A stretch of 64,000 nucleotides of DNA, taken from contig MNWN01000011.1 of assembly GCA_001872545.1 (NCBI GenBank), forward strand, positions 2,089 to 66,088. The letters run 5' to 3'. How positions within the stretch are numbered: position 1 is the first letter of the stretch; each line of letters opens with the position of its first letter. Below the pieces are notes generated by a model that was given only the letters and a program-made list of their open reading frames with translations, did no database searches and was not told the DNA's origin. The stretch comes from Parcubacteria group bacterium CG1_02_58_44. GTDB taxonomy: Bacteria > Patescibacteriota > Patescibacteriia > SG8-24. Shown piece by piece: positions 41,821 to 63,555 of the stretch. A program made the translations under genes and the position numbers.

Positions 41821-42480
41821 ATGCAGGATCCGAATAGCGTCGAGATAGACGGTCTCCACGACAGCGGGGATGCGGACGGCAAGAAACCTGTCAGTTCACT
41901 GAAGAGATTTTTTGGTTTTGTCGGGGAGCTGCTGCATGTCGTAGTCATTTCCTTAGCCATCATACTTCCGATTCGCTACTTTCTGATTCAGCCCTTTTAC
42001 GTCAAGGGAGCTTCGATGGAGCCGAACTTTTACGATCACGAATACCTCATCATCGACGAGATCAGCTATCGGCTCCGTGAACCGCAGCGCGGTGACATCG
42101 TCGTCTTCAGGTATCCGGACGATCCGAGCCAGTTTTTCATCAAGCGCATCGTAGCCCTGCCGGGGGAGCGCATCGTCATTTCCGGCGGCGGCCTGTGCAT
42201 CCTCGATCAGGATCATCCGGAGGGGTTTCTGCTAGACGAGAGCGACTATATCGGTTCCACCTTCACTTCCGGCGACAAGGATCTGACCCTCGCCGACGGC
42301 GAGTATTATCTCATGGGGGACAATCGGGCCGCGAGCATGGACTCTAGGACGTTCGGTGCGGTTCCGAGACAGCTGATGATCGGAAAGGTCATGCTCAGAG
42401 GTTGGCCGCCGGACAGAATGACGATCTTTTCCGGGGTTACATATCATGAGGATGCGACCGGAGGAGAGACTTCGAACTGA
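41821..42480 (+). CDS. lepB: Signal peptidase I
   Basis: A TM segment is followed by the catalytic Ser region YVKGASMEPNF and the Lys box GDIVVFRYP...FIKRIVALPGE, plus the C-terminal GDNRAASMDSR box. The track ORF begins upstream and reads through the tRNA-Val. Start chosen at the first ATG after the tRNA. Confidence 0.8.
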   Translation: MQDPNSVEIDGLHDSGDADGKKPVSSLKRFFGFVGELLHVVVISLAIILPIRYFLIQPFYVKGASMEPNFYDHEYLIIDEISYRLREPQRGDIVVFRYPDDPSQFFIKRIVALPGERIVISGGGLCILDQDHPEGFLLDESDYIGSTFTSGDKDLTLADGEYYLMGDNRAASMDSRTFGAVPRQLMIGKVMLRGWPPDRMTIFSGVTYHEDATGGETSN

Positions 42481-47161: not shown

Positions 47162-50100
47162 ATGCGCATAGACCGAAAAAAATTGGTAACTGCCGCGGTG
47201 GTGGTCTTTGGTGTGGCCCTGCTCGTATTTCCGGTTTTGGCGCAGACCGATTTGGGTTTGGATTACGCAACGTCGACCGGTCTTGGTACGACCGACATCC
47301 GGACAATCATCGGCAACATCGTCAACTACTTCCTTGGGCTGTTGGGCATCATAGCCGTACTGCTGATCCTCTACGGCGGCTTTAAGTGGATGACGTCGCA
47401 GGGCAACGAGGAACAGGTCGCCGATGCGAAGAAGATCATCGTCTCCAGTGTCATCGGTTTGGCTATCATCCTGTCCGCTTTTGCCATCGCGCAATTTATT
47501 CTAAGAGCGATAATCTCTGGCACCGGATTCGAAGGTGATGTAGGGCCAGGAGGCGGACGGTGTCCGCCTGGAGAGGTCTGCGGCATACCTGGAGCCGGCT
47601 CCGGCGGGTTTAAAGTCTCCGGCGTGGTGCCGGCCGGCAACGGTCCGGGAGGTTCCGGCTGGCCCAAGAACTACGCCATTACCGTTGCCTTTAGCCATGA
47701 AGTCGCGGCGGCAACCGTTAACGGAACTTCCTTTGTGGTGGAGAGGTGCAATCCGCGGTTGTCTGGCGGTGACCCTGCTCCGTTCAATGAGAGGAATTGC
47801 AATACCGTAGTTTCGGGTACTCGGACAGTTGAGGCTAATCGAATAGTCTTTAGACCCGACGATACGCCTGGAGACTATCCTACCGATTTCGAAGAAGATT
47901 ATTGGTATCGGGTACGGGTACTCGGTGGCGACGTCACCGACGTTCGTGGTCGAATTCTGGTCTGTCCTTTCTTGCCGCCGGGTCCGGACGGTGACATTTC
48001 GTCACCACGTGCGCTGTCGAGCCTGTGCGACCGGGCCATGGCCTTCAACAACCTTCGCGATGTCGAACCTCCGACCGTCAGGATCGACTCTCCTGCTTCC
48101 GCACCAGCCTACTGCCTGGACCGGATTCGCATCCGGGCCAGGGTGGAGGACGACTTCCTTCCGTCAAGGGTCGACTTCATGTTGGATGGGGGTCTGGCTC
48201 ACTTGATGGACGCCGACGACGAGCCCCTGTTTAGCGTTATCAATGCCGCACTGGATAATCCGTTCCTGTCCGATTCGGTCTTCATCGATTCCTCGAGTTT
48301 GGCCGATGGCGAGCACACCCTGTCCGCCGTCGGTTACGACGGCGTGCCCCAGGCCAGTGAGGCGGTCGACAAGAGGTTCAGGATAAATCCGGCCCATTGC
48401 TGTGACAGCGTACTGGATGCCGAGCTGGGTGAGGATGAGATAGATTGCGGTGCGGAGTCCGGCTGTGGTGCATGTCCGGAAGGTTTGTGTACAGAAGATG
48501 CCGATTGCGCGTCGGGTCTCTGCGAATCAGGGCACTGTGTGGCACGTCCGACGATACTCGATGTCTCTCCACTGAGGGCCGGACCCGGGACGCTGGTGAC
48601 GATCAGCGGTCGGTACTTCGGCGGAACCATGGGTCAGGTAGTTTTCTTGGGTGGCGATACGGACGGGGACGGTGAGGAGGCGGGGGATGACGACGACAGG
48701 TCGGCGGCTGCCTGTTCGCCCTGGTCCTGGTCCGACGATGAGGTAGTGGTCGCAGTTCCGGACGGAGCGGTCACCGGACCGCTGCAGCTGATCACCTCAG
48801 CCGGAACTTCGGATCGCACTGACGATGATTTTGAGCCGATGATCGGTGCCTTCTCTGTCAATGACGAGGTTTTCCCCGGAATCTGCTATCTGGAACCGAG
48901 TACAGGATCGGCCGGCGATCGGTTCATCGCCCACGGTGCCGGCTTTGGGGATGCCATGGGTGCCAGCCTGATCAGGATGGGTGGGGTGAGCGCCGACGTG
49001 GCGGCCGGAGGCTGGACGGCCTCGGCCGTTTCCGCCGCCGTTCCGTCCGTGCTGGCCGAGGGTATCTATCAGGTTGGGGTGATGGTCGGCGGACTGGACG
49101 GCATCGCGACTAACCAGCTCAACTTTACCCTGCGACGCCGCGACGAGGACGTCGGACCGCGAATAATCGAGATACTCCCGTCTTCCGGTCCGGTCGGCTC
49201 CTATGTCACCCTGCGCGGCACCGGTTTTGGACGGCGTAAGGGATTGGTCAGGTTTTTTTCTTCGCCGGACGGAGTCGACGGAATCGATTCGGCCATAGCC
49301 GCCGATCCGATCTGCGACGACAACTGGCATGATAACTACATCGTCGTAAAAGTACCGGACAAGTACATTGGCGACCTGGACATCGATCTAATTCGTCATC
49401 GGGTAGAGGTCGAGACGGCCGCTCCGGCTCAAACCAGTAACCGAGTAGACTTTTTGATCGATGGCAGTCCGTTGACGCCAGGAATGTGCTCGATTACGCC
49501 TGACAACGGCAAACCGGGCATACCTGTGATCGTATCGGGCGAGGGTTTCGGGCCGGGTCCGGCCAACGTAGACGCTCCCGGTTTCGCTGGGTTTGACGGC
49601 CGTCAGCCGGAAAGTTCGCTTCGTTTTTACGTTTCTGGGGCGGCGGCTGCTCCTGGTTTGATGGACGGCTTGATTACCAAGCCGTCGACGGCCTATTTGT
49701 GGTCTAGAACATCCGTCCGATCGGCGATCCCCGGCAATCCGGCCGACCGGAGCACTTGGCCGAATTCCGGTCCGGTTTTTGTCGTGGCTCGTAATGTGGC
49801 CACCCGCAATCCGATTCCGTTCAAGATTGGCGACTGCAATGACGATGGGATTTGCGAGGAGGGGACAACCTGCTGTGCCAACGGTTCGTGCCGTGAGTCC
49901 TGCGAACCGGAGGCTCGGAACAGTAAGTTCGGCTGGTACTTCAGTACCGACGTCCTACCTACCTTGCCCGTAGTGATACAGCGATCTTCCTGCAATATGG
50001 TGGCCGGCACCATTCAAAGTCCGACACCACAACACAGGGCGACCGATGCCTGTCGCAATGCTGAGGCGGCTGTGGAGTTTAGTCAGCCGATGAATATCGG

Positions 50101-53100
50101 TTCGCTGGACGATCCTGAGTCGCTGCTCATTGAGGAATGCGGTAGCGGTCGCGATATCGACTGTGCCGACCCACCAGTTGTCGTGCCGATCGCCAGACCG
50201 GTCGGGACTGACCTGACTGCAGACGGCATGACTATTCTTTCCATCCATCCGAGCAGTTTGGTTTATCCGCCGAACGATCTCGATGATGACGAGAACGAGC
50301 CGTTTACCGGTTACTTCAAGATCGGCACTTGGTATCGGGTGACCTTGGTTTCCAAACCGGGCGAAGTCGGCATTTTCGACACGACCGGCCGGTATCTGGA
50401 CGGAGATTATGATCGACGGGCCGGTGGTAATTTCACCTGGACTTTCAGGACAAGGACCGATCCGGCGGCCTGCGCTGCCGACAGCGTCATGGTCCTGCCG
50501 TCACGCTATACGATCACCCATCAGGGCATGCCCCCGGATCCGGACATCGGATTTAGCGCCGCACTGATGAACGGAGCCAACTGCAACAGGCTGCAGTGCG
50601 TCGGCCGTGAAGGCTTTGACCTGAGATGGTCGAGCGATCCGGGTGTATTCATCAGTTTGCTTGGTGCCGGTCCGGTCGCCGGATGTCGACAGCAGGTTAC
50701 AGGTCTGCTCGAGACCCCCGTTGACGCACCGGAAAGACTGACTGTATCCCTGCGGCCGGTCGGTGAGCTGCTGGACCGCAGGAGCACTTCGGCAGTGTCC
50801 GTAGCCTTCGCCGATCCGCGGGTAGTGCGGGTCATGCCGACTGAAGGCTGCACTGAGGCCTGTGTCAACGCGGTGGTCGGCGCGGTTTTCAACATACCGA
50901 TGAGTGCGCGGTCTTTCGCCGGAAACGTCGAACTGCTGCAGTGCCGCAACTCTTCCTGCAACCCACCTTTCGTTCCGATTGAGTTTACGGTCACGTCAGT
51001 CAGGGACGATGGTATCCGTGTGCTTCCGCTCGGCGATCCCGATGCGGTCCTTCAGGTCAGGATAGAGCCGGTTCCTGATGTCGGGGAGATGCCAAGGTTG
51101 ACGCCTGATACCTTCTTTAAGGTCAGAATCAGGGGCGGAGCCGACGGGGTTCTTTCCACGAGTGACATACCGCTCACTGGACTCAACACGCCCGGCTTTT
51201 ACGAATGGAAATTTAAGACTAGGACCGACGGCAGCATCTGCGAGATCTCTCGGGCGGAGATTGTTCCGCCTAACGCCACCTTGCGTTACGTAAGCGAACG
51301 TTTCGGCCTCAGTGTCGGAGCGTACGGACCGGCTGGTGACGAGTGCAGTCCCGACGGTCAGGAGATAAACGCCTGGGGCTATGATTGGGACTGGTCGGTC
51401 GATCCGAATCCCGTCCTGGTCGGTTTCATCAGGGCTAGAGATGTTGGTTCGGAAACCGGAATAGGCATCAGAGTCGACACGAATCCAGCGCCGAGGCGCG
51501 GCTGCGACAGCCAATGTCTGTTGGTCGGCTCGACCGATGTCGTTTCGCAGTGCGGAAACACCGATCCGGCTGATCCTCGTCCGCCTAGGGATCGGGCCGA
51601 GATTGGGGAGGACTGCGACGATGGCGATATCGACGGAGGCGACGGCTGCAGCGCGAACTGCCTGGCCGAAGGTTCTGCCTTCCCGACTTGCGGCAACGGC
51701 CGGTTGGATTCGGGGGAGCTGTGTGAGGCGCTTCCCGATGGGGAAGGGACCTTAGTCTTTCCGTTGGGCTGCAAGGATCCCAATATAAATATTGATGACA
51801 GGCCTGAACTTAACGACATAGGCTGTATTTTCTTGGGGTCTACGGCTGGAGGGTCGGTCTGTGGCGACGGTATTTGGGGTGACGGCGAAGCCTGTGAGGA
51901 CGGAAACCGACGCGATGGCGATGGCTGCAGCGCGGACTGTCTTCATGAAGGGACGTTTTCTATATGTACGGACGCTACGCCGGTGGACGTAAGATGCGTC
52001 AGTCAGTGCGGCAATGCCCATATTGAGCCGGGCGAGGATCCGGACTGTGACTTGGCCGGAGGCGTCGCATTGGGTTGCGATTTGCACTCTTGCACTAAGA
52101 CCGGTTCGGAGTCAGCTCAATGTTTGAATGATCATCTAGATCCGGGGGAGGAGTGTAGAGATGGAAATACTGATAACGGCGACGGCTGCAGCAGCCGCTG
52201 TCTGCTTGAAGGATCGTCGGCCTTCTATCGGGTACCTTCCTTTTGTGGTGACGGGTTTGTCGGACAGGGCGAGCATTCGTACTGTGACGGTGACGAAGTT
52301 GAGCCCGACAGGCTGATTGACAGTCGACAGATTACGGTCGCCGGAGACTACGATTCGACCGCCGGCGCCGCTACGACGAGCGTAGTGCATGCTTCGGTCG
52401 ATCGGCTGCCGGAAGGTTCCAGGGGTAACTCACGCGTGACGCTGACCTGTAACTGCAGCTCACAGGTCAGTCCCGACGGGTACTGTTTGGGACTGCTGGA
52501 CGGAGTGCCGGCCGCCCTGCGGCCGCCGGCCGGTTTGGCCTGCGCCGATTCGGGCTGCTGCGCACCTAGACCTTACGGCAGGCTGACCTATCCGGTTGAG
52601 GGCTCGGTCGGTATCTGCCGCAACACCGCCATACACTTGGAATTCGATCAGCCCATGAACGCCACTTCAATTAGTCAGAATCTATTGATCGGCGTCGACA
52701 GTGGTCCAGACGGCTGTCCGGCGGCTTTGGACGGCGGTCCAGATGAGAGCGGGGTCATTGAAGTACCGCCCTTCCCTCCGCCCCTGCCTGGACCGTTGGC
52801 CGTTGGGCCTGGCGGCCTGCTTCGTCGGGCTTGGTCGGCTGTCGCTGCATTTTTCGGTGACCTGTTCGGCCGGCCGGCTGCAGGTCATGCCCTCGGTATC
52901 CCGCATACCCATTTCTGCTCGATCACTGGAGATGTCACCGTTAGACTGACGGACGAGTCTAGAACCGAGGTCGAGTTTATGCTCGATCACGCCTTGCCTG
53001 CGGGAACCAGAATTAGGGTTAGGGTCCAGCCGGATGCCAGGACGATCGGCGGAGTCAGAATTAATCCGGCCGGACTGACTGCTGAGTTCACCACCGGTGA

Positions 53101-56100
53101 TCTGATCTGCGCCGTCGATCGCGTGATCGTCAGTCCGGAATCGGTCTTGCTGAACAGCGTTCGGGCTCCGGACCGGCCTCTCGTGGCTCGTGGCGTGTCC
53201 GACGACCGCGGCATTCGTGTCGACGGCGATGCCGCTAGTCTGATCGTGCCGACCAGGGAATACTCTTGGTCATGGGAATGGCTGCCGCTCTCTGAGAGGC
53301 TGCCGCATGTCTCTCCGGCCGTACTGAATCCGGTCACTGTCGGAGGGCGGCAGAGCGAGCGAGCGATGGTTCGGGTCAGGGGGCGCGAAACCGGGGACGA
53401 TCCGATCGGATACGTGCCGCAGGACGGTGTTGTAAATGTTTCGGTCAATGCTGTCACCGTCAATCCTGACGGTTCCGTTGCCCGTCTGCCGGTACTCGAC
53501 GGGCTTACCGGTCTGCCCGTACCAGATGAGTTCGTACTCCCTGGTAGTTCAACGGTTACGGTCGCGCTTTGTGACGTCATCTGGCCAAAGGTTCAGACCT
53601 GCGGCGATGATGGGAGGCTGCATCTGCCTTGGGATCCGGACAATCTACTCAATCCGCTCCATGGTGAAGAATGTTCGGCTGGAGTGGAACAGTTCTGGTA
53701 TCCCTTCACGGATCCGGAAACGAAAGCCAGCTTCTACTACTGCCGTGACATCTCGGGAGGCGACGGCGACGATCTTCTGCCGGCCATCGATGAGGATTTC
53801 GTTCTCGTCCACCCGGGCGGCGACATCCTGCACGAGTATCTCTTCACCTTTGCCGGCGCTGGGGCCGGTGATGCTTGGCAGAAAGATGCCGTAGGTTTCC
53901 GGACAATGTACAACCCGAGGCATATCGGCGTGGCCGACTGGTATCGCGACCGCGGTTTCTCCGGTGCGCCGATGCCGTTCAATGTCGACGGATACGACGC
54001 CATGAAGGAAGGTCGGACCGTCTACGTCAATTCCGCGTTTCTGGACGACACCCTGCATCTTTCCACTAACGTCAACGTCTTTTCGTTCAGTGACGGGTCC
54101 GCACCGGAGACGGTCACGGTCTTCAACCAGATAATGAATCGCATCAACTTCAACCGGCAGTCGGGACTCATGGACACTTTCATCTGTCAGGACGACGGCC
54201 GGGCGGTCTTGGACGAGGGCGGAAGCGCTTTGACCTGTTCCATCGATCTCGACTGCACGACAGGCACCTGTGGTGTCCCGAAGTCGAAGCTCGTACGTGA
54301 CGTGCGACGCTGGTCGGACCTTCACACCATGAGGTCTCTTCTCATGGCCAATCGTCCGCTTCCGACATTGGGCGAAGGCACCTTCATACGCTCCAGGACG
54401 TACAGCATCTGGCCGTCATGGGGCGACGTCCTGTCCCTGTCCGTCGGACGAACCATGCCGTCGGATCCCATAAACGCATTGGCATCTTGTTCGAGCGACG
54501 GTTTTGATTCGGAGACCTGCTGGAATTCGGTCAGTCGTGAGTTCAGTTGCGGAAGCCGTTCCAGCATCTATAGGTATCAGATCTTGGCCGGTCAGGCCGA
54601 TCTGTCCGTAGACATGGAGCTGGTCGGTCCGAAATGGAAAGGCACGACCTGCATCGAGATAACGGACAGTGTTGCCTGTGGGGCCATGTCTGGCTGTGTC
54701 TGGACAGGCGCTCCACCGAGCGGTAGCTGCAACTACGAGACCGTCAGGTTCCGTGCCTATGGGATAAACGCCGGTGCCGACATGTGTACCGGAGCGGTTG
54801 AGAGTGAGGAGGCGGGCTGCGGTAACGGCATCATCAATTCCGGTGAGGCCTGCGAACTGGGAGACCTCAGGACTCAGGAAGGAGCAGACGGTATCTGTGT
54901 CGGCGGAACCGTGGAGCAGGCCTGCACGTCGGACTGTCGCGGCTGGGAGGACGTACCCGGAACCTGCCGGATCGGCTACTGCGGCGACGGACGGAGACAG
55001 GGGGCCGAAACCTGCGATGACGGACCGCTCAACGGGACGTACGGGCACTGCAACGGCATCTGCAGAGGTTCGACCTTTTACTGTGGCGATGGTCTGTCCC
55101 ATCCCAGTGAGCTGTGCGATTGCGGCAGCTTGAATGGAAGTTATGCGGTCAACGCGGTTATTGCGCCATCGGGTGGGGTTCGTGCTTGTAGCACTGAAGA
55201 ACCGCGCACTGGGGCTAGTTTCGCTTCCTGTTCCTGGGATTGCCGTGGTCCGGCTCCGCACTGCGGCGACGGCATCATCAACGGCGTCGAGCAGTGCGAT
55301 GGCGGTTCTGAGGAGAGTCGTGGCGTTTGTCGGCGACCGGCTGACGACCCGCTGCATCCGTCGGGAGGCACCTGCACGGCAGACGCCGACTGCAATCTCG
55401 CGGGCGGGGAGCGCTGCGTGACCTGTCTGACTGTCGAACAGAGGTTCCGTCGGGCCTGCAACCCGAATAACGTCACTTCGGCCGATGACGAAAGAGATGG
55501 AGTGCCCAATCAGTCCTGTCACTGGAGTGCCTGGTCGTGTACCGCCCCCGGACGTTGCGGCAACGGCGTGACCGAGACCGGCGAGCAGTGCGACGACGGC
55601 AACGACGAGGATAACGATGCCTGCACCAGCGCCTGCATCAGCAACGTCTGCGGCGACGGATTCGTGAACGCGGCCGGCGGCGAGCTGTGCGACAGCGGCG
55701 GAAGGAACAACACTCCCTGCGTGCCCGAGTACGGGCATACCTGCAACTACTGCACTTCGGCCTGCCGATTGGGTACGGTTTCTGGCGGCTACTGCGGCGA
55801 CGGCCTGCTCCAGAACGCCAGTTCGGAGATACCGGGTCCCGAACAGTGCGACACGCACGGTGTGGTCATCGGTGACGGTTGGGTCTGCGTCAGCACCAGG
55901 CCCAAGGACAGGAGCTTCGGTACGCAGACCGGCTACGGCATCTGCTCGCTGAGCGGATGTGGCTACTCCTGTGCGGACAGAGATTCGGAGCTGTGCCAGA
56001 ATGATGCACTCGATGGCAATTCAGACCTCATACTTCCCGAAAGTTTTGAGGTAAGCATGGCGTCCAGGCCTGAATCCTGCGCCTTTATGGATTACGTTCC

Positions 56101-57238
56101 CTTGCGCATGGCTCCGCCGGTTGGAGGGCGGAGTCCGGGCAGCGAGCCCAGGTCGCTTTTCGAGTTCTGTTTGGATCGGCAGCGTCTGGTCGGCGGCAGT
56201 TCGGGAGAGCCTCCGTTGGCCAGACTGTCTAATAATTGCGATTCGGACGACGACAACGACGGCGTTCCGGACGAATTGGACTGTGGCCCCACAGATCCGT
56301 CGGTCAGGCCGGAGTATCGGATTCCGGGCACCACTCTGGTGGTTCCGGCCGGAGATCAAGAATGCACCGGCGACGGCAACTGCAACGGAGATTTTGGAGA
56401 TCTTCCGCCGTATCTGCATAAGAAGGTTGACATGGTGTTCGTCATCGACGTGACAAGGTCGATGAACAGCATCATCGACTCCCTGATCGACTCCCTGAGT
56501 GATTTCGTCACTAATCTTAGCGGTGCCAGAGGAATAGATCTCCAGTTTGGTTTCGTGACTGTAGGGCAGGCTGAGACTTTAACGCTCAGCATGATGAAGT
56601 CCCATCCGGTTCGTCCCGCCCTAGGGCCGTACATGTTTGCCCAGCTCGACGACATCGGTTCGTTTGGCGACAGCTTGCAGGCAATGAGGGACAATTGCTG
56701 GAGTAATGACGGTCACCATACTGACTTATGCTCTGTCGGCAAATATGAACCCCTTTATGCCGCAGCTTATGCCCTAATGAGACCCGGATCGGTCAGCTGC
56801 GGTCCGGAGGACGGCTGTGACCCGGCATTGGACCAGGTGTTGGATTACGGCATCGCATGGCGGGACGATGCCCAGCCGTATGTGGTGATAGTCGGCGATG
56901 AACCGCCGCCGGTGGGCGCGACATGGAGTGGTGACGATATGACCGGACGGGAGGAAGCTGAGGGGCTCCTGAGGTATATTGATCTTAATCGCGTCGCCGA
57001 TGCGGCCAAGGACTGTACCTTGCCCGGATGCGCTGACGGCGGCTATGTGGAGCTTTTCGTGATCAGTCGGCGGGTCAACAGGGATTACTGGTTGGATGTC
57101 CTGCCTACGACAGAAGACGGTTCGCGTCTGACGGCCGAACAGCGTTACATCAGTTTTGATGACGGCGGCGGGACCAATGGGCTCAACGGCGAGGCCTTGG
57201 TCGCCAGCATATTTCAGTACATCTGCCCTGCTCCCTGA
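47162..57238 (+). CDS. Giant multidomain surface protein (3358 aa): signal peptide + VirB2/TrbC-like pilin module + SbsA/Ig-like + several IPT/TIG-like domains + Myxococcus-type Cys-rich repeats (DUF4215-like) + Asp-rich calcium-binding-type segment + C-terminal von Willebrand factor A domain
   Basis: The N-terminus LAQTDLGLDYATSTGLGTTDIRTIIGNIVNYFLGLLGIIAVLLILYGGFKWMTSQGNEEQVADAKKIIVSSVIGLAIILSAFAIAQFIL. IPT-like PTILDVSPLRAGPGTLVTISGRYFGG, PRIIEILPSSGPVGSYVTLRGTGFG, PGMCSITPDNGKPGIPVIVSGEGFG. Cys repeats GEDCDDGDIDGGDGCSANCLAEG, GEACEDGNRRDGDGCSADCLHEG, GEECRDGNTDNGDGCSSRCLLEG, GEQCDDGNDEDNDACTSAC. The segment CDSDDDNDGVPDELDCGPTDPS. The VWA/MIDAS start VDMVFVIDVTRSMNSIIDSLIDSL. Single uninterrupted ORF of 10,077 nt. 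Confidence 0.8.
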   Translation: MRIDRKKLVTAAVVVFGVALLVFPVLAQTDLGLDYATSTGLGTTDIRTIIGNIVNYFLGLLGIIAVLLILYGGFKWMTSQGNEEQVADAKKIIVSSVIGLAIILSAFAIAQFILRAIISGTGFEGDVGPGGGRCPPGEVCGIPGAGSGGFKVSGVVPAGNGPGGSGWPKNYAITVAFSHEVAAATVNGTSFVVERCNPRLSGGDPAPFNERNCNTVVSGTRTVEANRIVFRPDDTPGDYPTDFEEDYWYRVRVLGGDVTDVRGRILVCPFLPPGPDGDISSPRALSSLCDRAMAFNNLRDVEPPTVRIDSPASAPAYCLDRIRIRARVEDDFLPSRVDFMLDGGLAHLMDADDEPLFSVINAALDNPFLSDSVFIDSSSLADGEHTLSAVGYDGVPQASEAVDKRFRINPAHCCDSVLDAELGEDEIDCGAESGCGACPEGLCTEDADCASGLCESGHCVARPTILDVSPLRAGPGTLVTISGRYFGGTMGQVVFLGGDTDGDGEEAGDDDDRSAAACSPWSWSDDEVVVAVPDGAVTGPLQLITSAGTSDRTDDDFEPMIGAFSVNDEVFPGICYLEPSTGSAGDRFIAHGAGFGDAMGASLIRMGGVSADVAAGGWTASAVSAAVPSVLAEGIYQVGVMVGGLDGIATNQLNFTLRRRDEDVGPRIIEILPSSGPVGSYVTLRGTGFGRRKGLVRFFSSPDGVDGIDSAIAADPICDDNWHDNYIVVKVPDKYIGDLDIDLIRHRVEVETAAPAQTSNRVDFLIDGSPLTPGMCSITPDNGKPGIPVIVSGEGFGPGPANVDAPGFAGFDGRQPESSLRFYVSGAAAAPGLMDGLITKPSTAYLWSRTSVRSAIPGNPADRSTWPNSGPVFVVARNVATRNPIPFKIGDCNDDGICEEGTTCCANGSCRESCEPEARNSKFGWYFSTDVLPTLPVVIQRSSCNMVAGTIQSPTPQHRATDACRNAEAAVEFSQPMNIGSLDDPESLLIEECGSGRDIDCADPPVVVPIARPVGTDLTADGMTILSIHPSSLVYPPNDLDDDENEPFTGYFKIGTWYRVTLVSKPGEVGIFDTTGRYLDGDYDRRAGGNFTWTFRTRTDPAACAADSVMVLPSRYTITHQGMPPDPDIGFSAALMNGANCNRLQCVGREGFDLRWSSDPGVFISLLGAGPVAGCRQQVTGLLETPVDAPERLTVSLRPVGELLDRRSTSAVSVAFADPRVVRVMPTEGCTEACVNAVVGAVFNIPMSARSFAGNVELLQCRNSSCNPPFVPIEFTVTSVRDDGIRVLPLGDPDAVLQVRIEPVPDVGEMPRLTPDTFFKVRIRGGADGVLSTSDIPLTGLNTPGFYEWKFKTRTDGSICEISRAEIVPPNATLRYVSERFGLSVGAYGPAGDECSPDGQEINAWGYDWDWSVDPNPVLVGFIRARDVGSETGIGIRVDTNPAPRRGCDSQCLLVGSTDVVSQCGNTDPADPRPPRDRAEIGEDCDDGDIDGGDGCSANCLAEGSAFPTCGNGRLDSGELCEALPDGEGTLVFPLGCKDPNINIDDRPELNDIGCIFLGSTAGGSVCGDGIWGDGEACEDGNRRDGDGCSADCLHEGTFSICTDATPVDVRCVSQCGNAHIEPGEDPDCDLAGGVALGCDLHSCTKTGSESAQCLNDHLDPGEECRDGNTDNGDGCSSRCLLEGSSAFYRVPSFCGDGFVGQGEHSYCDGDEVEPDRLIDSRQITVAGDYDSTAGAATTSVVHASVDRLPEGSRGNSRVTLTCNCSSQVSPDGYCLGLLDGVPAALRPPAGLACADSGCCAPRPYGRLTYPVEGSVGICRNTAIHLEFDQPMNATSISQNLLIGVDSGPDGCPAALDGGPDESGVIEVPPFPPPLPGPLAVGPGGLLRRAWSAVAAFFGDLFGRPAAGHALGIPHTHFCSITGDVTVRLTDESRTEVEFMLDHALPAGTRIRVRVQPDARTIGGVRINPAGLTAEFTTGDLICAVDRVIVSPESVLLNSVRAPDRPLVARGVSDDRGIRVDGDAASLIVPTREYSWSWEWLPLSERLPHVSPAVLNPVTVGGRQSERAMVRVRGRETGDDPIGYVPQDGVVNVSVNAVTVNPDGSVARLPVLDGLTGLPVPDEFVLPGSSTVTVALCDVIWPKVQTCGDDGRLHLPWDPDNLLNPLHGEECSAGVEQFWYPFTDPETKASFYYCRDISGGDGDDLLPAIDEDFVLVHPGGDILHEYLFTFAGAGAGDAWQKDAVGFRTMYNPRHIGVADWYRDRGFSGAPMPFNVDGYDAMKEGRTVYVNSAFLDDTLHLSTNVNVFSFSDGSAPETVTVFNQIMNRINFNRQSGLMDTFICQDDGRAVLDEGGSALTCSIDLDCTTGTCGVPKSKLVRDVRRWSDLHTMRSLLMANRPLPTLGEGTFIRSRTYSIWPSWGDVLSLSVGRTMPSDPINALASCSSDGFDSETCWNSVSREFSCGSRSSIYRYQILAGQADLSVDMELVGPKWKGTTCIEITDSVACGAMSGCVWTGAPPSGSCNYETVRFRAYGINAGADMCTGAVESEEAGCGNGIINSGEACELGDLRTQEGADGICVGGTVEQACTSDCRGWEDVPGTCRIGYCGDGRRQGAETCDDGPLNGTYGHCNGICRGSTFYCGDGLSHPSELCDCGSLNGSYAVNAVIAPSGGVRACSTEEPRTGASFASCSWDCRGPAPHCGDGIINGVEQCDGGSEESRGVCRRPADDPLHPSGGTCTADADCNLAGGERCVTCLTVEQRFRRACNPNNVTSADDERDGVPNQSCHWSAWSCTAPGRCGNGVTETGEQCDDGNDEDNDACTSACISNVCGDGFVNAAGGELCDSGGRNNTPCVPEYGHTCNYCTSACRLGTVSGGYCGDGLLQNASSEIPGPEQCDTHGVVIGDGWVCVSTRPKDRSFGTQTGYGICSLSGCGYSCADRDSELCQNDALDGNSDLILPESFEVSMASRPESCAFMDYVPLRMAPPVGGRSPGSEPRSLFEFCLDRQRLVGGSSGEPPLARLSNNCDSDDDNDGVPDELDCGPTDPSVRPEYRIPGTTLVVPAGDQECTGDGNCNGDFGDLPPYLHKKVDMVFVIDVTRSMNSIIDSLIDSLSDFVTNLSGARGIDLQFGFVTVGQAETLTLSMMKSHPVRPALGPYMFAQLDDIGSFGDSLQAMRDNCWSNDGHHTDLCSVGKYEPLYAAAYALMRPGSVSCGPEDGCDPALDQVLDYGIAWRDDAQPYVVIVGDEPPPVGATWSGDDMTGREEAEGLLRYIDLNRVADAAKDCTLPGCADGGYVELFVISRRVNRDYWLDVLPTTEDGSRLTAEQRYISFDDGGGTNGLNGEALVASIFQYICPAP

Positions 57239-57244: not shown

Positions 57245-57769
57245 ATGAACAAAAATAATCTTATTTTGATAGTTCTGGGTGCAGCGGCGGTTTTGGCCGT
57301 CGGTATGGCCGTGTTTGCCGTCTTGCGTAATCGGCAGCCGGCCGTGAGTCCACTGGACCGGTTCGACGAACATGGTGCCGTGGAGGTTCCGGTGGGCATC
57401 GACGACGACGGCGGACCGATTGAGGAGACAAGGGCAATCTGCGGCGACGGCATCTGTACTGCGGCCGAGTCCGTAGACATCTGCTGGTCGGATTGCGTCG
57501 ACTACGGTTCGTTCAGCGACATTAGCCTGACGAACCTGTCCGCCGGTCAGGTGGAGATTACCTGGAAGACCTCCAAGCCCATGACTTCGGCCGTAGATTA
57601 CGGCTTCAGCGAAAGCTACGAACTCGGTTCGGTGTCCGATTCCCAGCTGTTGACCGACCACAGACTGTTGACGGTCAGACTGAACGGCAGTGAATTTTTC
57701 TTCAGGCTGCGGGGGACCGACGGGGAGGGCAACGAGGAATCCTTCTCTAGTTTGGGCAACGAAAGATAA
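57245..57769 (+). CDS. Small single-pass membrane protein with a Cys motif ([19 protein letters not shown]) and an FN3-like segment; paralog 1 of 3
   Basis: N-terminal [24 protein letters not shown], then the CGDGxC...CxxDC motif shared with the next two genes and with repeats in the giant protein. Confidence 0.6.
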
Positions 57770-57777
57770 TCGCCCTT

Positions 57778-58590
57778 TTGCAGGGTAACCAGAATCGCAT
57801 TCATATGTTCGAAGAGCAGAACGAGCCGGTAGACATATTTTCGGAAACGGAACCGGCCAAGGACGGCGGCATCAGTCCGTCGGTCGGCAGCCAACCTCCG
57901 GTTATGGGCGGATCGCCGCCGTCTTCCGGAACTTTACCTACACCGGTGTCTGGCATAACTCCCCAGATAGACATCGCCGCATCTAGGGGTCCGTCCAAGA
58001 TCCTGTTCGTCGTAATTTTTCTGCTGCTGGTCGGTGCAGTCGGCGTCGGTATCTGGTATTTCGTTCTTAGTGGCGACGGTGCAGTTCCGGTCGGGAACGA
58101 GCCGGCCGACGTCAATTCGAACGATTCCGGTTCGGCGATAGACGTTCAGATTCCGGAGCCGGAGAATCGATCGCTTTGCGGTAACGGAGTCTGCGATCTG
58201 GATGAGGACAAGTTCTCATGTCCGGCGGACTGTCCGCTGATTTCGCCCGTTTGCGGCGACGGCATCTGTCAGGCCGACGAGGGCAGCTTGGACTGTCCGG
58301 CCGACTGCCAGGCCACTCCCGACGAGCCGGTCATGCCGCCGGAACCGGCGAATCAGCCGCTCGACACGGACGGCGACGGCCTGAGTGACGCCGAGGAGAC
58401 GGCACTCGGCACCAATCCGCAGATGGCCGACACTGACGCCGACGGGCTGACGGACCGGGAGGAACTGCGTCAGTACTCGACCGATCCGACCAGTCCGGAC
58501 TCGGACGGCGACGGCTATATCGACGGCGAGGAGGTGTGGGCCGGTTACGACCCCAACGGCCCAGGCAAGCTGCTTAACTTGCCCCAGTAG
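57778..58590 (+). CDS. Single-pass membrane protein with two CGxGxC..CPADC Cys motifs and Asp-rich TSP3/calcium-binding-like repeats; paralog 2 of 3
   Basis: [128 protein letters not shown]. Confidence 0.6.
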
Positions 58591-58613
58591 CTGAGGGCTA
58601 TTCGATAGGTCCT

Positions 58614-59873
58614 ATGGCAGACGAAAAGAAAATTTCCGACGGTTTGGACAGGCCCTCCGGCACCTTAACGTCTTCGACGTCCGACGCCGACGAGCCGGAG
58701 ATTTTCGTAATGCCGGAGGAATTCTATGGGGCCGCCGTCAAGCCCAAGCCGGAAGCGGCAGTGTCGTCAGCCTCACCTGCGGTTTCGTCGCCTGCAGCCG
58801 TCTCGACCGTCAAGACGGGCAAAGGTTTCACCGTGGCGATCGTCACCTTAGCCGCGATCTTGGTCGTTGCCTTGGGAGTCGCGGTCTATTTCGTGTTTTT
58901 CTCCGGTCCGAAGTCCGTCTGCGGTAACAACCTCTGCGAGTCAGGCGAAACGTTTGCGGCCTGCCCGAACGACTGCGAACCGCCGCCGTCGGTCTGCGGC
59001 GACGGTGACTGTGAGAGTTCCGAGAGCTACCTGTCCTGCCCGTCCGATTGCCGCCAGCCAGATGCCGTCTGCGGGGACAGACAATGCAACGGGGACGAGA
59101 CTGCCGAATCTTGTCCGGAGGACTGCCGGCCGCCGGCTGAGTGCGGCGACGGACGATGCGAAGCCGACCGTGGCGAGAGCTATGATTCCTGCCGGAGCGA
59201 CTGCCAGCCGCCTGAGCCGGTGCCGTCAGTCGATACCGACAGCGACGGTCTGACTGACGTCGAGGAGACGAGTATCTACGGCAGCGACCCCAATGGCACC
59301 AACAGCGACGGCGACAGTTTCGTTGACCTGAACGAGGTGATCAACCTTTTCGATCCGGCCAAGAAGGAACCGGCCCGCCTGATCGACAGTCCCGGAATCT
59401 CCGCCTATCGGAATGAGGATTACGGATTCGAGATTTTCTGCCCTACAGCTTGGGGCAAGAGTGACCTGCCGTCCGAGCAGTCGGTGCGCTTTACTTCGCC
59501 GACCGGCGAGACGGTTAAGGTGACCGTCTTTATCAAGCAGCCGGAGACGACCTTGGACGATTGGTTACGGTCCTCTTCGGTCAGCGGACTGTCGGCAGTC
59601 GGACAGGCCGGCCGGTCTATCAACCGCCATGGCTACGAGCAGGTGACCATGTCGGACCGTCGGACAGTGCTGATTTCGGACGGCACAAATGTAGCCCTGC
59701 TGCGTTACGACCTGGAAGGCCAGCTCGAGGTGCGCTATCGGGTGACGCTGTCCGTCATGGCCAACAGCTTGACTTTCGTGACCAAGCCCTCTCCGTCAGC
59801 CGAGACCTTGTCGGGAACCGGGTCGGTTCTGCCCGTATCTGAATCGTCGGATGCAGAATCGGATCGTCCTTAG
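58614..59873 (+). CDS. Single-pass membrane protein with four CGxxxC..CPxDC Cys motifs, Asp-rich calcium-binding-like repeats and a C-terminal globular domain; paralog 3 of 3
   Basis: TM VAIVTLAAILVVALGVAVYFVFF. CGNNLCESGETFAACPNDCEPPPSVCGDGDCESSESYLSCPSDCRQPDAVCGDRQCNGDETAESCPEDCRPPAECGDGRCEADRGESYDSCRSDCQPP. DTDSDGLTDVEETSIYGSDPNGTNSDGDSFVDLNEV. Confidence 0.6.
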   Translation: MADEKKISDGLDRPSGTLTSSTSDADEPEIFVMPEEFYGAAVKPKPEAAVSSASPAVSSPAAVSTVKTGKGFTVAIVTLAAILVVALGVAVYFVFFSGPKSVCGNNLCESGETFAACPNDCEPPPSVCGDGDCESSESYLSCPSDCRQPDAVCGDRQCNGDETAESCPEDCRPPAECGDGRCEADRGESYDSCRSDCQPPEPVPSVDTDSDGLTDVEETSIYGSDPNGTNSDGDSFVDLNEVINLFDPAKKEPARLIDSPGISAYRNEDYGFEIFCPTAWGKSDLPSEQSVRFTSPTGETVKVTVFIKQPETTLDDWLRSSSVSGLSAVGQAGRSINRHGYEQVTMSDRRTVLISDGTNVALLRYDLEGQLEVRYRVTLSVMANSLTFVTKPSPSAETLSGTGSVLPVSESSDAESDRP

Positions 59874-59925: not shown

Positions 59926-60393
59926 ATGCTGACTATAGACCTGTCCGGACGACCACCGCGGGGGGTGACTGCCGATTCGATGCAGAAATTGACCGTCGCC
60001 GCCTTCAGGATGGCAGGCGGCATCGGGGACGTTCACGTTACGTTTTCGGTAGTCGACGATCGGACCATGATGGGGCTGAATTTCCGGCATCGCGGCGTGA
60101 AGGGGACGACTGACGTGCTGTCTTTTGCCTACGGCACCGACAAGGACGGTTGGCCCGAACCCGACCGAGATGGCAGTCATAAACTTCTAGGCGAGATAGT
60201 CATATCCAGACCGCAAGTGAGCCGTCAGGCCAAGAAGATCGGCAGGACGGTCGCAGACGAGTTTTCGGTTATGGTGGTTCATGGCGTGCTGCATCTGATG
60301 GGTTACGATCACGCCACGAGATGGCAGGAAGACGAGATGTTCGGCCTCCAGCATGAAATTTTGATGTCGCAGAGAATTATTTTCCATCCATGA
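59926..60393 (+). CDS. ybeY: rRNA maturation endoribonuclease YbeY
   Basis: The metal-binding motif HGVLHLMGYDH and UPF0054 architecture. Length is 155 aa. Confidence 0.88.
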   Translation: MLTIDLSGRPPRGVTADSMQKLTVAAFRMAGGIGDVHVTFSVVDDRTMMGLNFRHRGVKGTTDVLSFAYGTDKDGWPEPDRDGSHKLLGEIVISRPQVSRQAKKIGRTVADEFSVMVVHGVLHLMGYDHATRWQEDEMFGLQHEILMSQRIIFHP

Positions 60394-60764
60394 TATTCAG
60401 CTCAAGACAGCTTAGAAGAAGCTTTTCGTTCGCCCTTTCCGGCCTGCGTCGTGTGCTGCATGACGAGCAGAACTTTCGTCTGCAGATGCTCGTCGGTCTT
60501 CTGGTCATTGTCGCCATGTTTTTTTTCGACCTGAGCAGCCTGGAGAGGGCCGTTTTGACGCTTGCGATCGCCTTTATCCTCGTGCTAGAATTGATGAACA
60601 GTATTTTTGAACGGGTTGCCGATCTGCTCAAGCCTAGAGTGCACATGCATGTGCAGGAAGTTAAGGACATCATGGCCGGAACGGTACTGCTGGCCTCCAT
60701 GGCTGCGATTCTGGTGGGACTGCTTATACTATGGCCACACCTGACGAACGAGCTGTTCGGTTAA
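60390..60764 (+). CDS. dgkA: Diacylglycerol kinase/undecaprenol kinase family protein (DgkA)
   Basis: Three TM helices. ERAVLTLAIAFILVLELMNSIFERVADL is the DgkA catalytic-region signature. Overlaps ybeY by 4 bp. Confidence 0.8.
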   Translation: MIFSSRQLRRSFSFALSGLRRVLHDEQNFRLQMLVGLLVIVAMFFFDLSSLERAVLTLAIAFILVLELMNSIFERVADLLKPRVHMHVQEVKDIMAGTVLLASMAAILVGLLILWPHLTNELFG

Positions 60765-60782: not shown

Positions 60783-62033
60783 ATGGCGGACGATTCATTG
60801 TTTGCAGGAATAGACATAGGCTCGACTGCGGTCAGGATTGCGGTCGGTCAGAAGATGCCGAACGCTGATAGGGGTCAGGTCCACATAATTGGGGCAGCCG
60901 AAACCGTGTCCGAAGGCATCAATCGCGGCATCATCAACTCGATCGAGGATGCCGTATCTTCTGTTTCGGCCTGCATCGAGAAGGTAGAACGCATGACCGG
61001 AATGCCTTTCGGTTCGGCTTGGGTTTCAGTCTCCGGTCCGCATGTGAGCATGTTGGAAAGCAGGGGAGTCGTGGCCGTCTCCCGTCCGGACGGAGAGATC
61101 AGGGACAAGGATGTCGAACGGGCGGTCGATGCGGCGCAGACCGTGGCGACCCCGGTCAACTATGAGATCATTCACGTCATCCCCAAGTCGTTTGCCGTCG
61201 ACGGTCAGACCGACGTCAGGGATCCGGTCGGAATGTCAGGTATCAGGTTGGAGGTCAATACGCAGATCATTCAGGGCCTGTCGTCACATATCAGGAATCT
61301 TACCAAATGCGTCTATCGTACCGGCGTGAACATAGAGAAGTTAGTGCTCGGTGCGTTGGCCGCATCCGAAGTGGTCGTGACCTCTCGTCAGAAGGAGCTT
61401 GGAGTGGCGGTCGTCAATATCGGTGGCGCATCGACCAATCTGGCGGTCTTTGAGCATGGTGACCTGCTGCACATCGGAATGATCCCTCTCGGTTCGGATC
61501 ACGTGACGGCCGACATTGCCATCGGCCTGCGCACTTCCATCGACACTGCCGAGCGGGTCAAGCTGCAGCACGCATCGGCAACGCCGAAGAGTTTCGGTAA
61601 GGGTGACCTGATCGACCTGAAGGAGATGGGCGTTCAGGACAGTGAGGAGATCTCCCTGCGCTATGTTTCCCAGATCGTTGAGGCTAGGTGCGAGGAACTT
61701 CTGGAGAAGGTCGACAAGGAGCTTAAGACCGTCGGTCGAAGCGGCCTGCTGCCGGCCGGAATCGTACTGACCGGCGGCGGCGCCAAGTTGCCTGGCCTGG
61801 TCGAGTTGGCCAAGGAGAAGCTGCGTTTGCCGGTGTCATTGGGCTTTCCGGTCGGAATGACCAGCATAACCGACCGGGTCAACGACCTGTCTTTCTCGAC
61901 TGCCATTGGGTTGGTGCAGTGGGGCATCAACGATCTGCCGCCGGAAACCAGGCGAGGAGGACTATTGTCTCGCTATCGGCCGATGGACCTGATGTCTAAG
62001 GGAATAAGAAAGCTGTTCGGTCAGACGTCATAG
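60783..62033 (+). CDS. ftsA: Cell division protein FtsA
   Basis: The actin-like ATPase N-terminus FAGIDIGSTAVRIAVGQ, the phosphate-2 region and the C-terminal amphipathic tail. Lies upstream of ftsZ. Confidence 0.9.
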   Translation: MADDSLFAGIDIGSTAVRIAVGQKMPNADRGQVHIIGAAETVSEGINRGIINSIEDAVSSVSACIEKVERMTGMPFGSAWVSVSGPHVSMLESRGVVAVSRPDGEIRDKDVERAVDAAQTVATPVNYEIIHVIPKSFAVDGQTDVRDPVGMSGIRLEVNTQIIQGLSSHIRNLTKCVYRTGVNIEKLVLGALAASEVVVTSRQKELGVAVVNIGGASTNLAVFEHGDLLHIGMIPLGSDHVTADIAIGLRTSIDTAERVKLQHASATPKSFGKGDLIDLKEMGVQDSEEISLRYVSQIVEARCEELLEKVDKELKTVGRSGLLPAGIVLTGGGAKLPGLVELAKEKLRLPVSLGFPVGMTSITDRVNDLSFSTAIGLVQWGINDLPPETRRGGLLSRYRPMDLMSKGIRKLFGQTS

Positions 62034-62277
62034 GTCGACTGCTGACCAGTTGGGTATGGACCGATGCGACAGGCGTCGGTTTTGTTTTTTGTCTGACGAA
62101 AAAGCGGCCGTTCGTCAGTTTGGGTCTGCGAATACCTTTTTTGTTCATTTTTAGTTCAAAATCGCTTGACGACTGGTTCTCTTCTCCCATACTCTTACCC
62201 TGTGTTTTGAGATTCTATGGGGAGGTCTCGTTCGGTGCCGAAGTTCGGGTGCCGGGGCCGCCGTTAATCACAAGTCT

Positions 62278-63555
62278 ATGGCAGAAGTAAAGCCGGCAAT
62301 CGAATCGTTCGCCAAGATAAAGGTGATTGGTGTTGGCGGTTCTGGCGGTTCGGCCATCAACCGGATGATCAGGTCCAAGATCAAGGGCGTCGAGTTCATT
62401 GTCGCCAACACGGACGTCCAGGCCCTGCATAATTCCGTGGCCCCAAAAAAGATCCAGCTTGGCAAGTCCGTGACGCGCGGACTGGGTGCGGGGATGAATC
62501 CGGACATCGGCAAGCAGTCAGCCGAGGAGAACCAGAACGAGATTCGCGAGGCGTTGAACGGTGCCGACATGGTTTTTATAACTTGTGGTTTGGGCGGCGG
62601 AACCGGCAGCGGAGCTTCGCCGACCATCGCCGAGATTGCCCGAGACTGCGGTGCGCTGACTGTGGCCGTGGTGACCAGACCGTTCTCCTTCGAGGGTGTC
62701 CAGAGGAAGAAAATCGCCGAGAGGGCGTTCGACAGCTTGGTCGCCCAGGTCGATACGATCATCGCCATACCGAACGACCGGGTGCTTTCGGTCATCGACA
62801 AGAAGACTTCGCTGGTCGATGCCTTCGAGGCGGTTGACGACGTGCTGCGTCAGGGCGTCCAGAGCATCTCGGAGATCATCACCGTGCCTGGACTGGTCAA
62901 CGTCGACTTCGCCGACGTGAAGGCGATCATGCAGAACACAGGTTCGGCACTGATGGGCATCGGCGTGGCCACCGGCGAGAATCGGGTCATTACCGCCGCC
63001 AAACAGGCCATCTCCAGTCCGCTGCTCGAGATGTCGATCGAGGGGGCCAAGGGCATCCTGTTTACCATTACCGGCGGCGTCGACCTGTCGATGCACGAGT
63101 TCGACGAGGCCTCAAAGGTGATAACCGGCAAGGCCGATCCTGAGGCTAGGGTCATCTTCGGTGCGGTCATAGACGAGAGCCTGAAGGATGAGGTCAAGGT
63201 CTGCGTGATCGCTACCGGCTTCGATGCGGACCGTTCGAGTAAGCTCAAGGGCGACAAGGAAGCGAATCCCTTCTCTTCGGAGAGATTCGGATCGTCCCAG
63301 GAGAAGGCGTCGGAACGGCTGTCCGTCGTCCGCAGGAGCCCGACCGTCGAGAACCTGTCCGAAGAGAAGGAGGATGCGGAGACGTCGACGGAAGGCGTCG
63401 GTTTCGGGGGACCTTCGAACGGATTGGGAGCCTTCGTCAGGCGTCCGGTTCGAGACGCGGAAGATGAAAACGAGACCGGTCGTCAGCCGGCCGTCGCCGT
63501 CGGAGGGGAGGAAGATCTGGAGATTCCGGCCTTCATCAGGCGGAAGATGCCGTAA
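62278..63555 (+). CDS. ftsZ: Cell division GTPase FtsZ
   Basis: IKVIGVGGSGGSAINRMI and the tubulin signature GGGTGSGASPTIAEIAR. The T7 loop NVDFADV. The C-terminal conserved peptide DLEIPAFIRRK. Confidence 0.95.
   Translation: MAEVKPAIESFAKIKVIGVGGSGGSAINRMIRSKIKGVEFIVANTDVQALHNSVAPKKIQLGKSVTRGLGAGMNPDIGKQSAEENQNEIREALNGADMVFITCGLGGGTGSGASPTIAEIARDCGALTVAVVTRPFSFEGVQRKKIAERAFDSLVAQVDTIIAIPNDRVLSVIDKKTSLVDAFEAVDDVLRQGVQSISEIITVPGLVNVDFADVKAIMQNTGSALMGIGVATGENRVITAAKQAISSPLLEMSIEGAKGILFTITGGVDLSMHEFDEASKVITGKADPEARVIFGAVIDESLKDEVKVCVIATGFDADRSSKLKGDKEANPFSSERFGSSQEKASERLSVVRRSPTVENLSEEKEDAETSTEGVGFGGPSNGLGAFVRRPVRDAEDENETGRQPAVAVGGEEDLEIPAFIRRKMP

Follow-up and report, generated by a model that had tools for sequence, protein, structure and literature searches.

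Conserved TSP3 repeat membrane proteins encoded beside giant VirB2-like pilin-module proteins in Patescibacteria

A stretch of 64,000 nucleotides from Parcubacteria group bacterium CG1_02_58_44, an uncultivated, ultra-small bacterium (contig MNWN01000011.1, positions 2,089 to 66,088; hereafter the window) encodes a giant protein of 3358 amino acids (aa) and, directly downstream of its gene (47162-57238) and in the same orientation, three open reading frames (ORFs), here termed g1, g2, and g3. What do these smaller proteins have to do with the giant protein, and which of their features belong together? An earlier reading of the window, made from the sequence alone, had proposed three paralogous accessory proteins tied to the giant protein by a cysteine box present in all four. 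We find that the conserved element is a gene order, in which the gene of a giant protein bearing a VirB2-like pilin module comes first, followed by g2 and then g3.

Gene order around the giant gene

Related loci were collected by a scan that took one genome per species and used an alignment of 34 closer sequences as the query. A relative of g3 is present in 224 species-level genomes, the named ones being Uhrbacteria, Magasanikbacteria, or "Patescibacteria/Parcubacteria group." Linkage was counted by tblastn of the window proteins against 87 nonduplicate loci. A giant homolog lies upstream in the same orientation in 64 of the 65 species-level loci that have at least 6 kb upstream of the g3 relative, which upholds the linkage to the giant gene claimed by the sequence-only reading; the exception (L065) has ORFs of 1256 and 650 aa in that place. 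Neither g2 nor g3 was lost in any of the 87 loci. Between the giant gene and g2 there is a hypervariable slot of 0 to 3 genes, mostly for short anchored proteins with TSP3 repeats. In the loci where the N terminus of the giant protein falls inside the locus (8 loci by tblastn), it matches the pilin module, with confirmation by Pfam in L071. A set of eight loci fetched by protein identity, in which g3 identity runs from 79% down to ~25%, all have a gene for a large protein of the giant family, then 0 to 4 small genes, then g2 and g3; the pilin module is visible in six of these, and in the other two the giant gene is truncated by the end of the locus or contig.

Downstream, ybeY-dgkA-ftsA-ftsZ follow in 68 of 72 related loci. 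The order giant-g2-g3 is also kept in two loci with other surroundings. In L071, it is followed by mreC, a 166-aa ORF, PBP2, greA, and a class II aminoacyl-tRNA synthetase (tRNA-synt_2); in L010, clpP, secD, secF, a Wzy_C protein gene, and a prepilin peptidase gene intervene before ftsA-ftsZ. In every context seen, giant-g2-g3 stands just upstream of division or shape genes (L071, 11809-15071; window, 60783-63555), which may be coincidence. Many of the TPA_asm metagenome-assembled genomes (MAGs) among L017-L087 that carry giant-g2-g3-ybeY-dgkA-ftsA-ftsZ, on contigs or chromosomes of ~1 Mb, are titled "uncultured Gammaproteobacteria bacterium"; they are almost certainly mislabeled Patescibacteria, because they have the same synteny, that of the Candidate Phyla Radiation (CPR).

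The genes of the locus in the window and those that follow it are as follows.

44884-47130 (+): 748-aa protein whose gene opens the locus; VirB2-like pilin module at the N terminus (T4SS_pilin in Pfam, E=7.6e-6), plus Big_5
47162-57238 (+): giant protein, 3358 aa, a surface protein with a signal peptide
57245-57769 (+): g1, 174 aa, with a signal-anchor helix, one cysteine box, and a β-rich C-terminal domain
57805-58590 (+): g2, 261 aa, with a transmembrane (TM) helix, two cysteine boxes, and three TSP3 repeats
58614-59873 (+): g3, 419 aa, with a TM helix, four cysteine boxes, two TSP3-type loops, and a PsbP/Mog1-like C-terminal domain
59926-60393 (+): ybeY (Pfam YbeY)
60390-60764 (+): dgkA (Pfam DAGK_prokar)
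60783-62033 (+): ftsA (own translation and Pfam annotation of orthologous loci)
62278-63555 (+): ftsZ (own translation and Pfam annotation of orthologous loci)

The last four genes are probably context only and outside the system. The positions of the three co-oriented genes after the giant gene were borne out, with one change of start: the ORF listed for g2 spans 57778-58590, and its start was moved to the ATG at 57805 because an MF[DE]..EP.DIF N terminus is conserved in ~50 orthologs. The g1-g2 gap is therefore 35 bp, outside the 6 to 23 bp first given for all of the gaps, a range that does describe giant-g1 (6 bp) and g2-g3 (23 bp). No terminator-like hairpin was found between the giant gene, g1, g2, and g3, the earliest one standing after ftsA; the counts from the promoter and terminator scan were no different from shuffle expectation.

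The giant protein carries a VirB2/TrbC-like two-helix module at 47252-47512, and its Pfam matches are T4SS_pilin (3.8e-12, 46.5 bits), TrbC (2.4e-6), Big_5 (1.3e-16), and TIG (7.7e-14). In both the giant and the 748-aa protein, Ig-like domains of the Big_5 and TIG families come after the pilin module (PF18895/PF04956), which scores 26.4 bits in the 748-aa protein against a cutoff of 26.6; g1, g2, and g3 have no such module. In L008, too, the giant gene comes after a pilin-module gene, of 702 aa and comparable to the 748-aa gene. Beside uvrA, 21 kb upstream of the locus, lies the gene of a third T4SS_pilin-containing protein (713 aa, 21803-23944, + strand, E=4.6e-8), and the genome therefore has at least three large fusions with VirB2-like modules. 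Toward the C terminus of the giant protein, the peptide VDMVFVIDVTRSM (residues 3089-3101, 56426-56464) resembles the first strand and the DxTxS metal ion-dependent adhesion site (MIDAS) motif of a vWA domain. Such a domain is not established there: three VWA Pfam models give E values of 0.2-0.35 only. A Protein Data Bank (PDB) sequence search with the giant protein C terminus gave no useful match. In the closest relative (GCA_003518215.1; L001, 7607-8643), the giant gene was annotated in two parts, of 3002 and 344 aa; the giant protein of the window spans both in tblastn, so that the gene is either frameshifted, misassembled, or truly split.

Architecture of g1, g2, and g3

The g2 protein has a conserved N-terminal peptide (residues 1-14, 57805-57846), a TM helix (residues 66-88, 58000-58068), two boxes (58177-58233 and 58252-58308), three TSP3 repeats (58363-58398, 58429-58464, and 58498-58533), and a conserved C terminus (58543-58587). 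The order in its family is a [QK][KN]EP[EV]DIFA[ED] peptide, the TM helix, a variable linker with 0 to 4 boxes, two or three TSP3 repeats, and a GY[ND]PNGPGKL..P C terminus; ~50 full-length orthologs have the N- and C-terminal motifs in common. Taking the g2 and g3 families together, the TSP3 repeats number two to four. In g3, the conserved cytoplasmic peptide EPEIFVMPEEFYGAA (residues 27-41, 58692-58736) and a TM helix (residues 72-96, 58827-58901) are followed by four boxes (58920-58976, 58995-59051, 59070-59126, and 59142-59204), two TSP3-type calcium loops (59232-59267 and 59301-59336), and a PsbP/Mog1-like domain (59388-59783). Its family shows a [DE]EPVIHVIPE.FYGAA peptide, the TM helix, a variable linker, the two TSP3-type loops, and the C-terminal globular domain. 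The short cytoplasmic peptides are strongly conserved, in ~50 g2 and ~40 g3 orthologs, and both open E-P-V. To judge by their sequences, they look like docking motifs for a putative cytoplasmic partner.

The two proteins are related to each other, with 32% identity over ~200 aa (E=3e-24) that cover the TM helix, stalk, and TSP3 region. The claim that all three are paralogs is therefore kept for g2 and g3 and dropped for g1, which has only a helix and one box in common with them. Each of the three contains one strongly hydrophobic helix, in agreement with the prediction of single-pass membrane proteins. That this helix is an N-terminal anchor holds for g1; in g2 and g3 it is preceded by cytoplasmic tails of ~65-72 aa. 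In the g3 family, the 15 residues before the helix contain a mean of 3.66 Lys and Arg and the 15 after it 1.44. Cysteines are absent before the helix in both the g2 and the g3 family, and after it they number 3.4 (g3) and 1.8 (g2) per 100 aa. We infer that g1, g2, and g3 are bitopic, with the N terminus inside and the C terminus outside.

The Asp-rich repeats noted earlier as being of a calcium-binding type correspond to Pfam TSP3_bac (PF18884) in g2 and g3, and calcium binding is predicted from them. For g2, the model finds three repeats (E=8e-18, 64.4 bits; gathering cutoff, 25). The g3 protein of the window scores 18.8 bits, below the cutoff, with one repeat above and one below detection; its orthologs in L071 (32.3 bits) and L010 (37.9 bits) pass. 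The acidic residues of both g3 loops are invariant across 59 orthologs and relatives, and the DxDxDGxxDxxE loops of g2 and g3 are bona fide TSP3 calcium loops. An EF-hand identity was considered and rejected: EF-hand_5 and EF-hand_6 reach 16.5-18.6 bits in g2 against cutoffs of ~25, and the match covers only the loop of one TSP3 repeat.

The C-terminal domain of g3 falls within the PsbP/Mog1-like fold superfamily (PF01789 clan). The values listed for it were 9.3 for PsbP, 8.9 for Tsi3, 8.6 for Mog1, 8.4 for mycobacterial Apa, and 7.9 for mycobacterial LpqN, and the isolated domain scores 24.3 bits against the PsbP gathering score of 23.5 (Pfam PF01789). A PDB sequence search with g3 gave no useful match. 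PsbP proper, the photosystem II protein, was rejected as an identification: the genome is that of a member of the Patescibacteria, the window has no photosynthesis genes, and identity to PsbP is 13-18%. The host is nonphotosynthetic, and the domain is therefore not a photosystem II subunit.

The g1 protein has its hydrophobic helix at residues 6-27 (57260-57325) and one box (57440-57496), which terminates in CWSDC, not CPxDC. It has only three homologs among 5.8 billion proteins, and a Candidatus Uhrbacteria MAG of the CG_4_10_14_0_8_um_filter_58 series encodes a protein that matches it at 100% identity. The g1 gene is lineage specific and not a conserved member of the gene set, contrary to the original proposal. 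Its C-terminal domain (57512-57745) is β-rich and may be weakly FN3/Pur_ac_phosph_N-like: it scores 13.7 bits against PF16656 (E=0.095; cutoff, 30), and BLASTP gave E=0.003 to a PF16656-positive Pur_ac_phosph_N-like domain of L006. An AlphaFold2 model built from the three-sequence alignment was unusable, with a predicted local distance difference test (pLDDT) score of 44, and predicted β-strands only.

The four-cysteine box and the rest of the window

The box has the pattern C-x4-C-x8-C-x3-C and measures 19 aa, or 21 in the last g3 copy, with a period of 24-25 aa. When all six frames of the 64-kb window were scanned, it proved confined to g1, g2, and g3, where the spacing-based pattern gives 1, 2, and 4 copies, the numbers stated in the sequence-only reading; with exact spacing there are 6 in the window, whereas 100 shuffles gave 0.15 on average and never more than 1. 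The unit of ~22 aa and the literal regular expression proposed for it did not survive: the expression gives zero matches, because the Glu stands 3 residues after the second Cys and not 4-7. Taken from many proteins, 369 units give the consensus C-G-[DN]-G-x-C-x3-E-[TSND]-x2-[ST]-C-P-x-D-C; within the 19-aa unit the four Cys, Glu10, and Asp18 are invariant, and Asp/Asn3 is conserved. With its four invariant Cys placed outside the cytoplasm, each unit most likely contains two disulfides.

The box is widespread. A phmmer search with the 99-aa stalk of g3 against 1.84 billion cluster representatives found 2,279 proteins at E<=1e-3 (665 at <=1e-10), a lower bound for the number of box-bearing clusters at 50% identity. 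In the search for g3 homologs, matches beyond the ortholog group cover the box region only, in unrelated architectures with up to 16 tandem boxes. Among these unrelated proteins are trypsin-like peptidases, DUF11 and CarboxypepD_reg proteins, and GDSL lipases, and the arrays, of 10-16 copies, stand between catalytic or adhesive domains and anchors. No Pfam-A or NCBIfam model matches the box at E values up to 10, even in proteins with 10-16 copies. In a Pfam scan of 90 box proteins, no family covered the box, the commonest co-occurring families being Trypsin (8/90) and Somatomedin_B (6/90), and a PDB sequence search with a 14-box protein gave no match to the box.

The giant protein was said to carry the same box. 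Its CGDG units are instead TIGR02232 (myxo_disulf_rpt) repeats with another Cys spacing, cysteine rich and acidic, which NCBIfam finds in seven stretches at ~51551-55800 (E=3.1e-24, 84.5 bits); a search of the giant protein with the general four-Cys pattern (C-x4-C...C-x3-C) returned no unit. Like the box, TIGR02232/DUF4215 repeats have a CG[DN]G.....E start, an acidic extracellular character, and a tandem use in stalks. They differ in length (~31-38 aa against 19 aa) and in spacing, CG.G-x(6-8)-C-DDGN-x(3-5)-GDGC-x3-C against C-x4-C-x8-C-x3-C. The TIGR02232/DUF4215 models match neither g1, g2, and g3 (E up to 1) nor the four-box stalk and the 10-16-box proteins (E up to 10). Profile comparison with hhalign aligned the first 14 columns only, with a probability of 54%. 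The two repeats do meet in single proteins: P0045, a g3 ortholog, has TIGR02232 repeats and one box at the stalk position, and in P0100 box and TIGR02232 alternate strictly with a 54-aa period. This suggests that they are related or functionally interchangeable. L006 (10001-11353) was listed with these two proteins for the same co-occurrence.

Nor do the boxes tie g2 and g3 to the giant protein, as had been supposed. Among the species-representative genomes, only 7 of ~84 g3 orthologs and 3 g2 orthologs have any box, and the boxless orthologs (~90% of the related species examined) have Pro/Glu-rich linkers at that position. Orthologs carry 0 to 4 boxes, and the TSP3 repeats and terminal motifs are constant. 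Variable in number and replaceable by Pro-rich linkers or TIGR02232, the box is therefore an interchangeable stalk module, a promiscuous and dispensable spacer that is not the signature of the system.

The window otherwise contains ordinary Patescibacteria housekeeping genes. ARAGORN places a tRNA-Ile with anticodon UAU ("tat") at 32159-32234 (+), which may reflect alternative AUA decoding in this CPR lineage; in most bacteria AUA is read by a lysidine-modified CAU tRNA. The signal peptidase I ORF (Peptidase_S26; 41488-42480, +, TTG start) runs through tRNA-Val (41659-41735), and its Pfam match begins at residue 147, so that the true lepB start lies downstream of the tRNA. A class A RNase P RNA at 10449-10917 (+) scores 169.9 bits and has 469 nt against a model of 367 positions, with sizeable insertions; the ORF on the opposite strand over it (10447-10968) is spurious.

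Known systems and the role of g2 and g3

Literature searches turned up no published description of the gene set or of the box, motif-string searches giving irrelevant papers only, and the statement that this is not a described system stands. The constituent domains are all of known kinds; the combination is new. What appears new are two families of partner proteins that bear cytoplasmic peptides, the constancy with which they accompany giant pilin-module proteins, and a box with no Pfam or NCBIfam model. The nearest likeness is to Myxococcus xanthus TraA/TraB, where a large surface protein with a Cys-rich stalk is encoded beside a TSP3-bearing, envelope-anchoring partner (PMC12045341; PMC3325183); TraA is a receptor on a Cys-rich "presentation stalk" and works 1:1 with the TSP3-containing TraB (PMC12045341). 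However, TraA has PA14, TIGR04201 repeats (PMC3325183), and a MYXO-CTERM anchor, whereas the giant protein has TIGR02232 repeats and a VirB2-like module, and TraB is an outer-membrane β-barrel with an OmpA domain, whereas g2 and g3 are predicted bitopic inner-membrane proteins of a monoderm-type CPR bacterium. Pfam and NCBIfam scans of the giant protein and g1-g3 gave no match to PA14, TIGR04201, MYXO-CTERM, or OmpA. The repeats of TraA (TIGR04201) and of the giant protein (TIGR02232) are not homologous, and TraAB is therefore an architectural analogy only.

Bacterial TSP3 envelope proteins (PF18884; OmpA-like, CglD, and MtsD) have the DxDxDGxxDxxE loops in common with g2 and g3, which differ from them in having no OmpA domain, vWA domain, or lipoprotein signal and in overall architectures that match no model; the only NCBIfam matches of g2 are weak, partial ones to CglD and MtsD via TSP3, at 30 bits against an equivalog threshold of 400. 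The g3 domain has the PsbP/Mog1/DcrB/LpqN-type α-β sandwich with only 8-18% identity, and no description is known of this domain joined to TSP3 repeats and a TM anchor. In Patescibacteria, VirB2-like pilins are widespread, some of them in tandem arrays, VirB2 being a small protein encoded mostly near virB4 (PMC12102498). The two genes upstream of g1 likewise carry the PF18895/PF04956 module, but here it is fused to ectodomains of ~650 and ~3250 aa, and no type IV secretion system (T4SS) ATPase is nearby. That survey covers VirB2-like pilins and does not mention giant fusions with TSP3 and PsbP-like partners such as g2 and g3 (PMC12102498).

We favor, with confidence about evenly balanced, the reading that g2 and g3 are calcium-dependent membrane anchor or adaptor subunits that act beside the giant protein at the base of a surface apparatus, probably one for host contact. 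The two proteins would lie in the membrane next to the two-helix module of the giant protein and form the base with it, their TM helices and conserved cytoplasmic peptides serving as the link to membrane and cytoplasm. The TSP3 loops would confer calcium-dependent rigidity or binding, and the PsbP-like head of g3 could offer a surface for protein or ligand binding, the purpose that the PsbP/Mog1-like fold serves elsewhere outside the cytoplasm. In this sublineage the boxes would act as a rigid, disulfide-stiffened stalk or spacer, and g1 would be the occupant of the hypervariable slot between the giant gene and g2. Several observations weigh against this reading. Synteny is kept across the whole region, with hisS-yqeY upstream and ybeY-dgkA-ftsA-ftsZ-nrdR-pyk downstream, so that adjacency alone is weak evidence, and the downstream context is broken in two loci only. 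Among the window ORFs scanned against Pfam, there is no match to a T4SS ATPase (VirB4/VirD4 type) or channel gene, and none to a Dsb-like gene; many of these organisms inhabit anoxic groundwater. The Lys and Arg counts around the g2 helix, 1.69 before and 1.57 after, are neutral as to topology.

The syntenic neighborhood could also mean that g1, g2, and g3 have nothing to do with one another, being for example generic envelope or matrix proteins of the cell surface, and stay beside the giant gene only through an inherited and slowly rearranging gene order. We rate this as less probable, though a serious contender: the conserved region includes the housekeeping genes ybeY, dgkA, ftsA, ftsZ, nrdR, and pyk, and both TSP3 repeats and Cys boxes are promiscuous, occurring in hundreds to thousands of other architectures. 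Against it, giant-g2-g3 survives in the two loci whose downstream genes were replaced or displaced, g2 and g3 are never lost beside a slot that is hypervariable, and the genes are co-oriented and tightly spaced, with no terminator-like site between them. The same neighbors raise the thought that g2 and g3 are envelope scaffolds of morphogenesis, with N-terminal peptides that would dock on FtsA/FtsZ or MreC/PBP2 and with the giant protein as a bystander. Division or shape genes do lie downstream everywhere (ftsA-ftsZ in the 68 of 72 loci, mreC-PBP2 in L071, and ftsA-ftsZ ~7 kb off in L010), and the strong conservation of the short peptides in both families would fit. Yet two genes with no connection to division, ybeY and dgkA, always stand in between; the peptides are unlike the C-terminal peptide of the window's FtsZ (..LEIPAFIRRKMP); Pfam and NCBIfam scans show no homology of g2 or g3 to known divisome components; and there are three distinct contexts only. 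We consider this reading unlikely.

Two further explanations start from the box. That it is a knuckle for Zn, Fe, or another thiophilic metal, used for sequestering or sensing metal at the surface, seems improbable, even though each 19-aa unit combines four invariant Cys with the invariant Glu10 and Asp18 and the conserved Asp/Asn3, many source habitats are anoxic so that extracytoplasmic thiols may remain reduced, and giant proteins of related loci give weak Cu-binding_MopE matches. The C-x4-C...C-x3-C spacing matches no Pfam family, metal-binding ones included, at E values up to 10, and the exchange of boxes for Pro-rich linkers in most orthologs, like the 10-16-copy arrays between enzymes and anchors, fits a spacer better than an active site. 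The original proposal, that paralogous accessory or chaperone proteins recognize the giant protein through a common CGDG...C box, is very improbable and is largely refuted by the distribution data. It can draw on the resemblance of the first ~10-14 box residues (vCG[DN]G....E) to the TIGR02232 start and on the meeting of the two repeats in P0100 and P0045. But the giant protein has no true box, ~90% of orthologous loci keep the gene order with g2 and g3 both boxless, at least 2,279 unrelated clusters contain the box, and g1 is not conserved. The C-terminal domains are predicted to be extracytoplasmic, and ectodomains outside the cell exclude a cytoplasmic chaperone role.

To our knowledge, how CPR/Patescibacteria make contact with their hosts is largely unknown outside the cultivated Saccharibacteria. 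The analysis defines a locus that is conserved in the core genome of a large clade of uncultivated bacteria, with a g3 relative in at least 224 species-level genomes, and it supplies candidates for attachment machinery, two cytoplasmic peptides that could be used as bait, and a prediction of calcium dependence. The four-Cys repeat, carried by 2,279 or more clusters (50% identity) and unmatched by Pfam-A or NCBIfam in these scans, marks an annotation gap; the motif that was most conspicuous at first sight is the interchangeable stalk, the least specific part of the finding. A bolder version, which we regard as a long shot, is that an undescribed calcium-dependent attachment organelle, encoded in the core genome of Uhrbacteria/Magasanikbacteria-type CPR bacteria, is built from the giant protein, g2, and g3 plus a hypervariable subunit (g1, for example), that the EP.DIF and EPVIHVIPE.FYG peptides couple it to an intracellular partner, maybe the division or elongation machinery, and that the box represents a new, widespread extracellular repeat family. 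If that were true, these bacteria would coordinate host contact with cell division in space.

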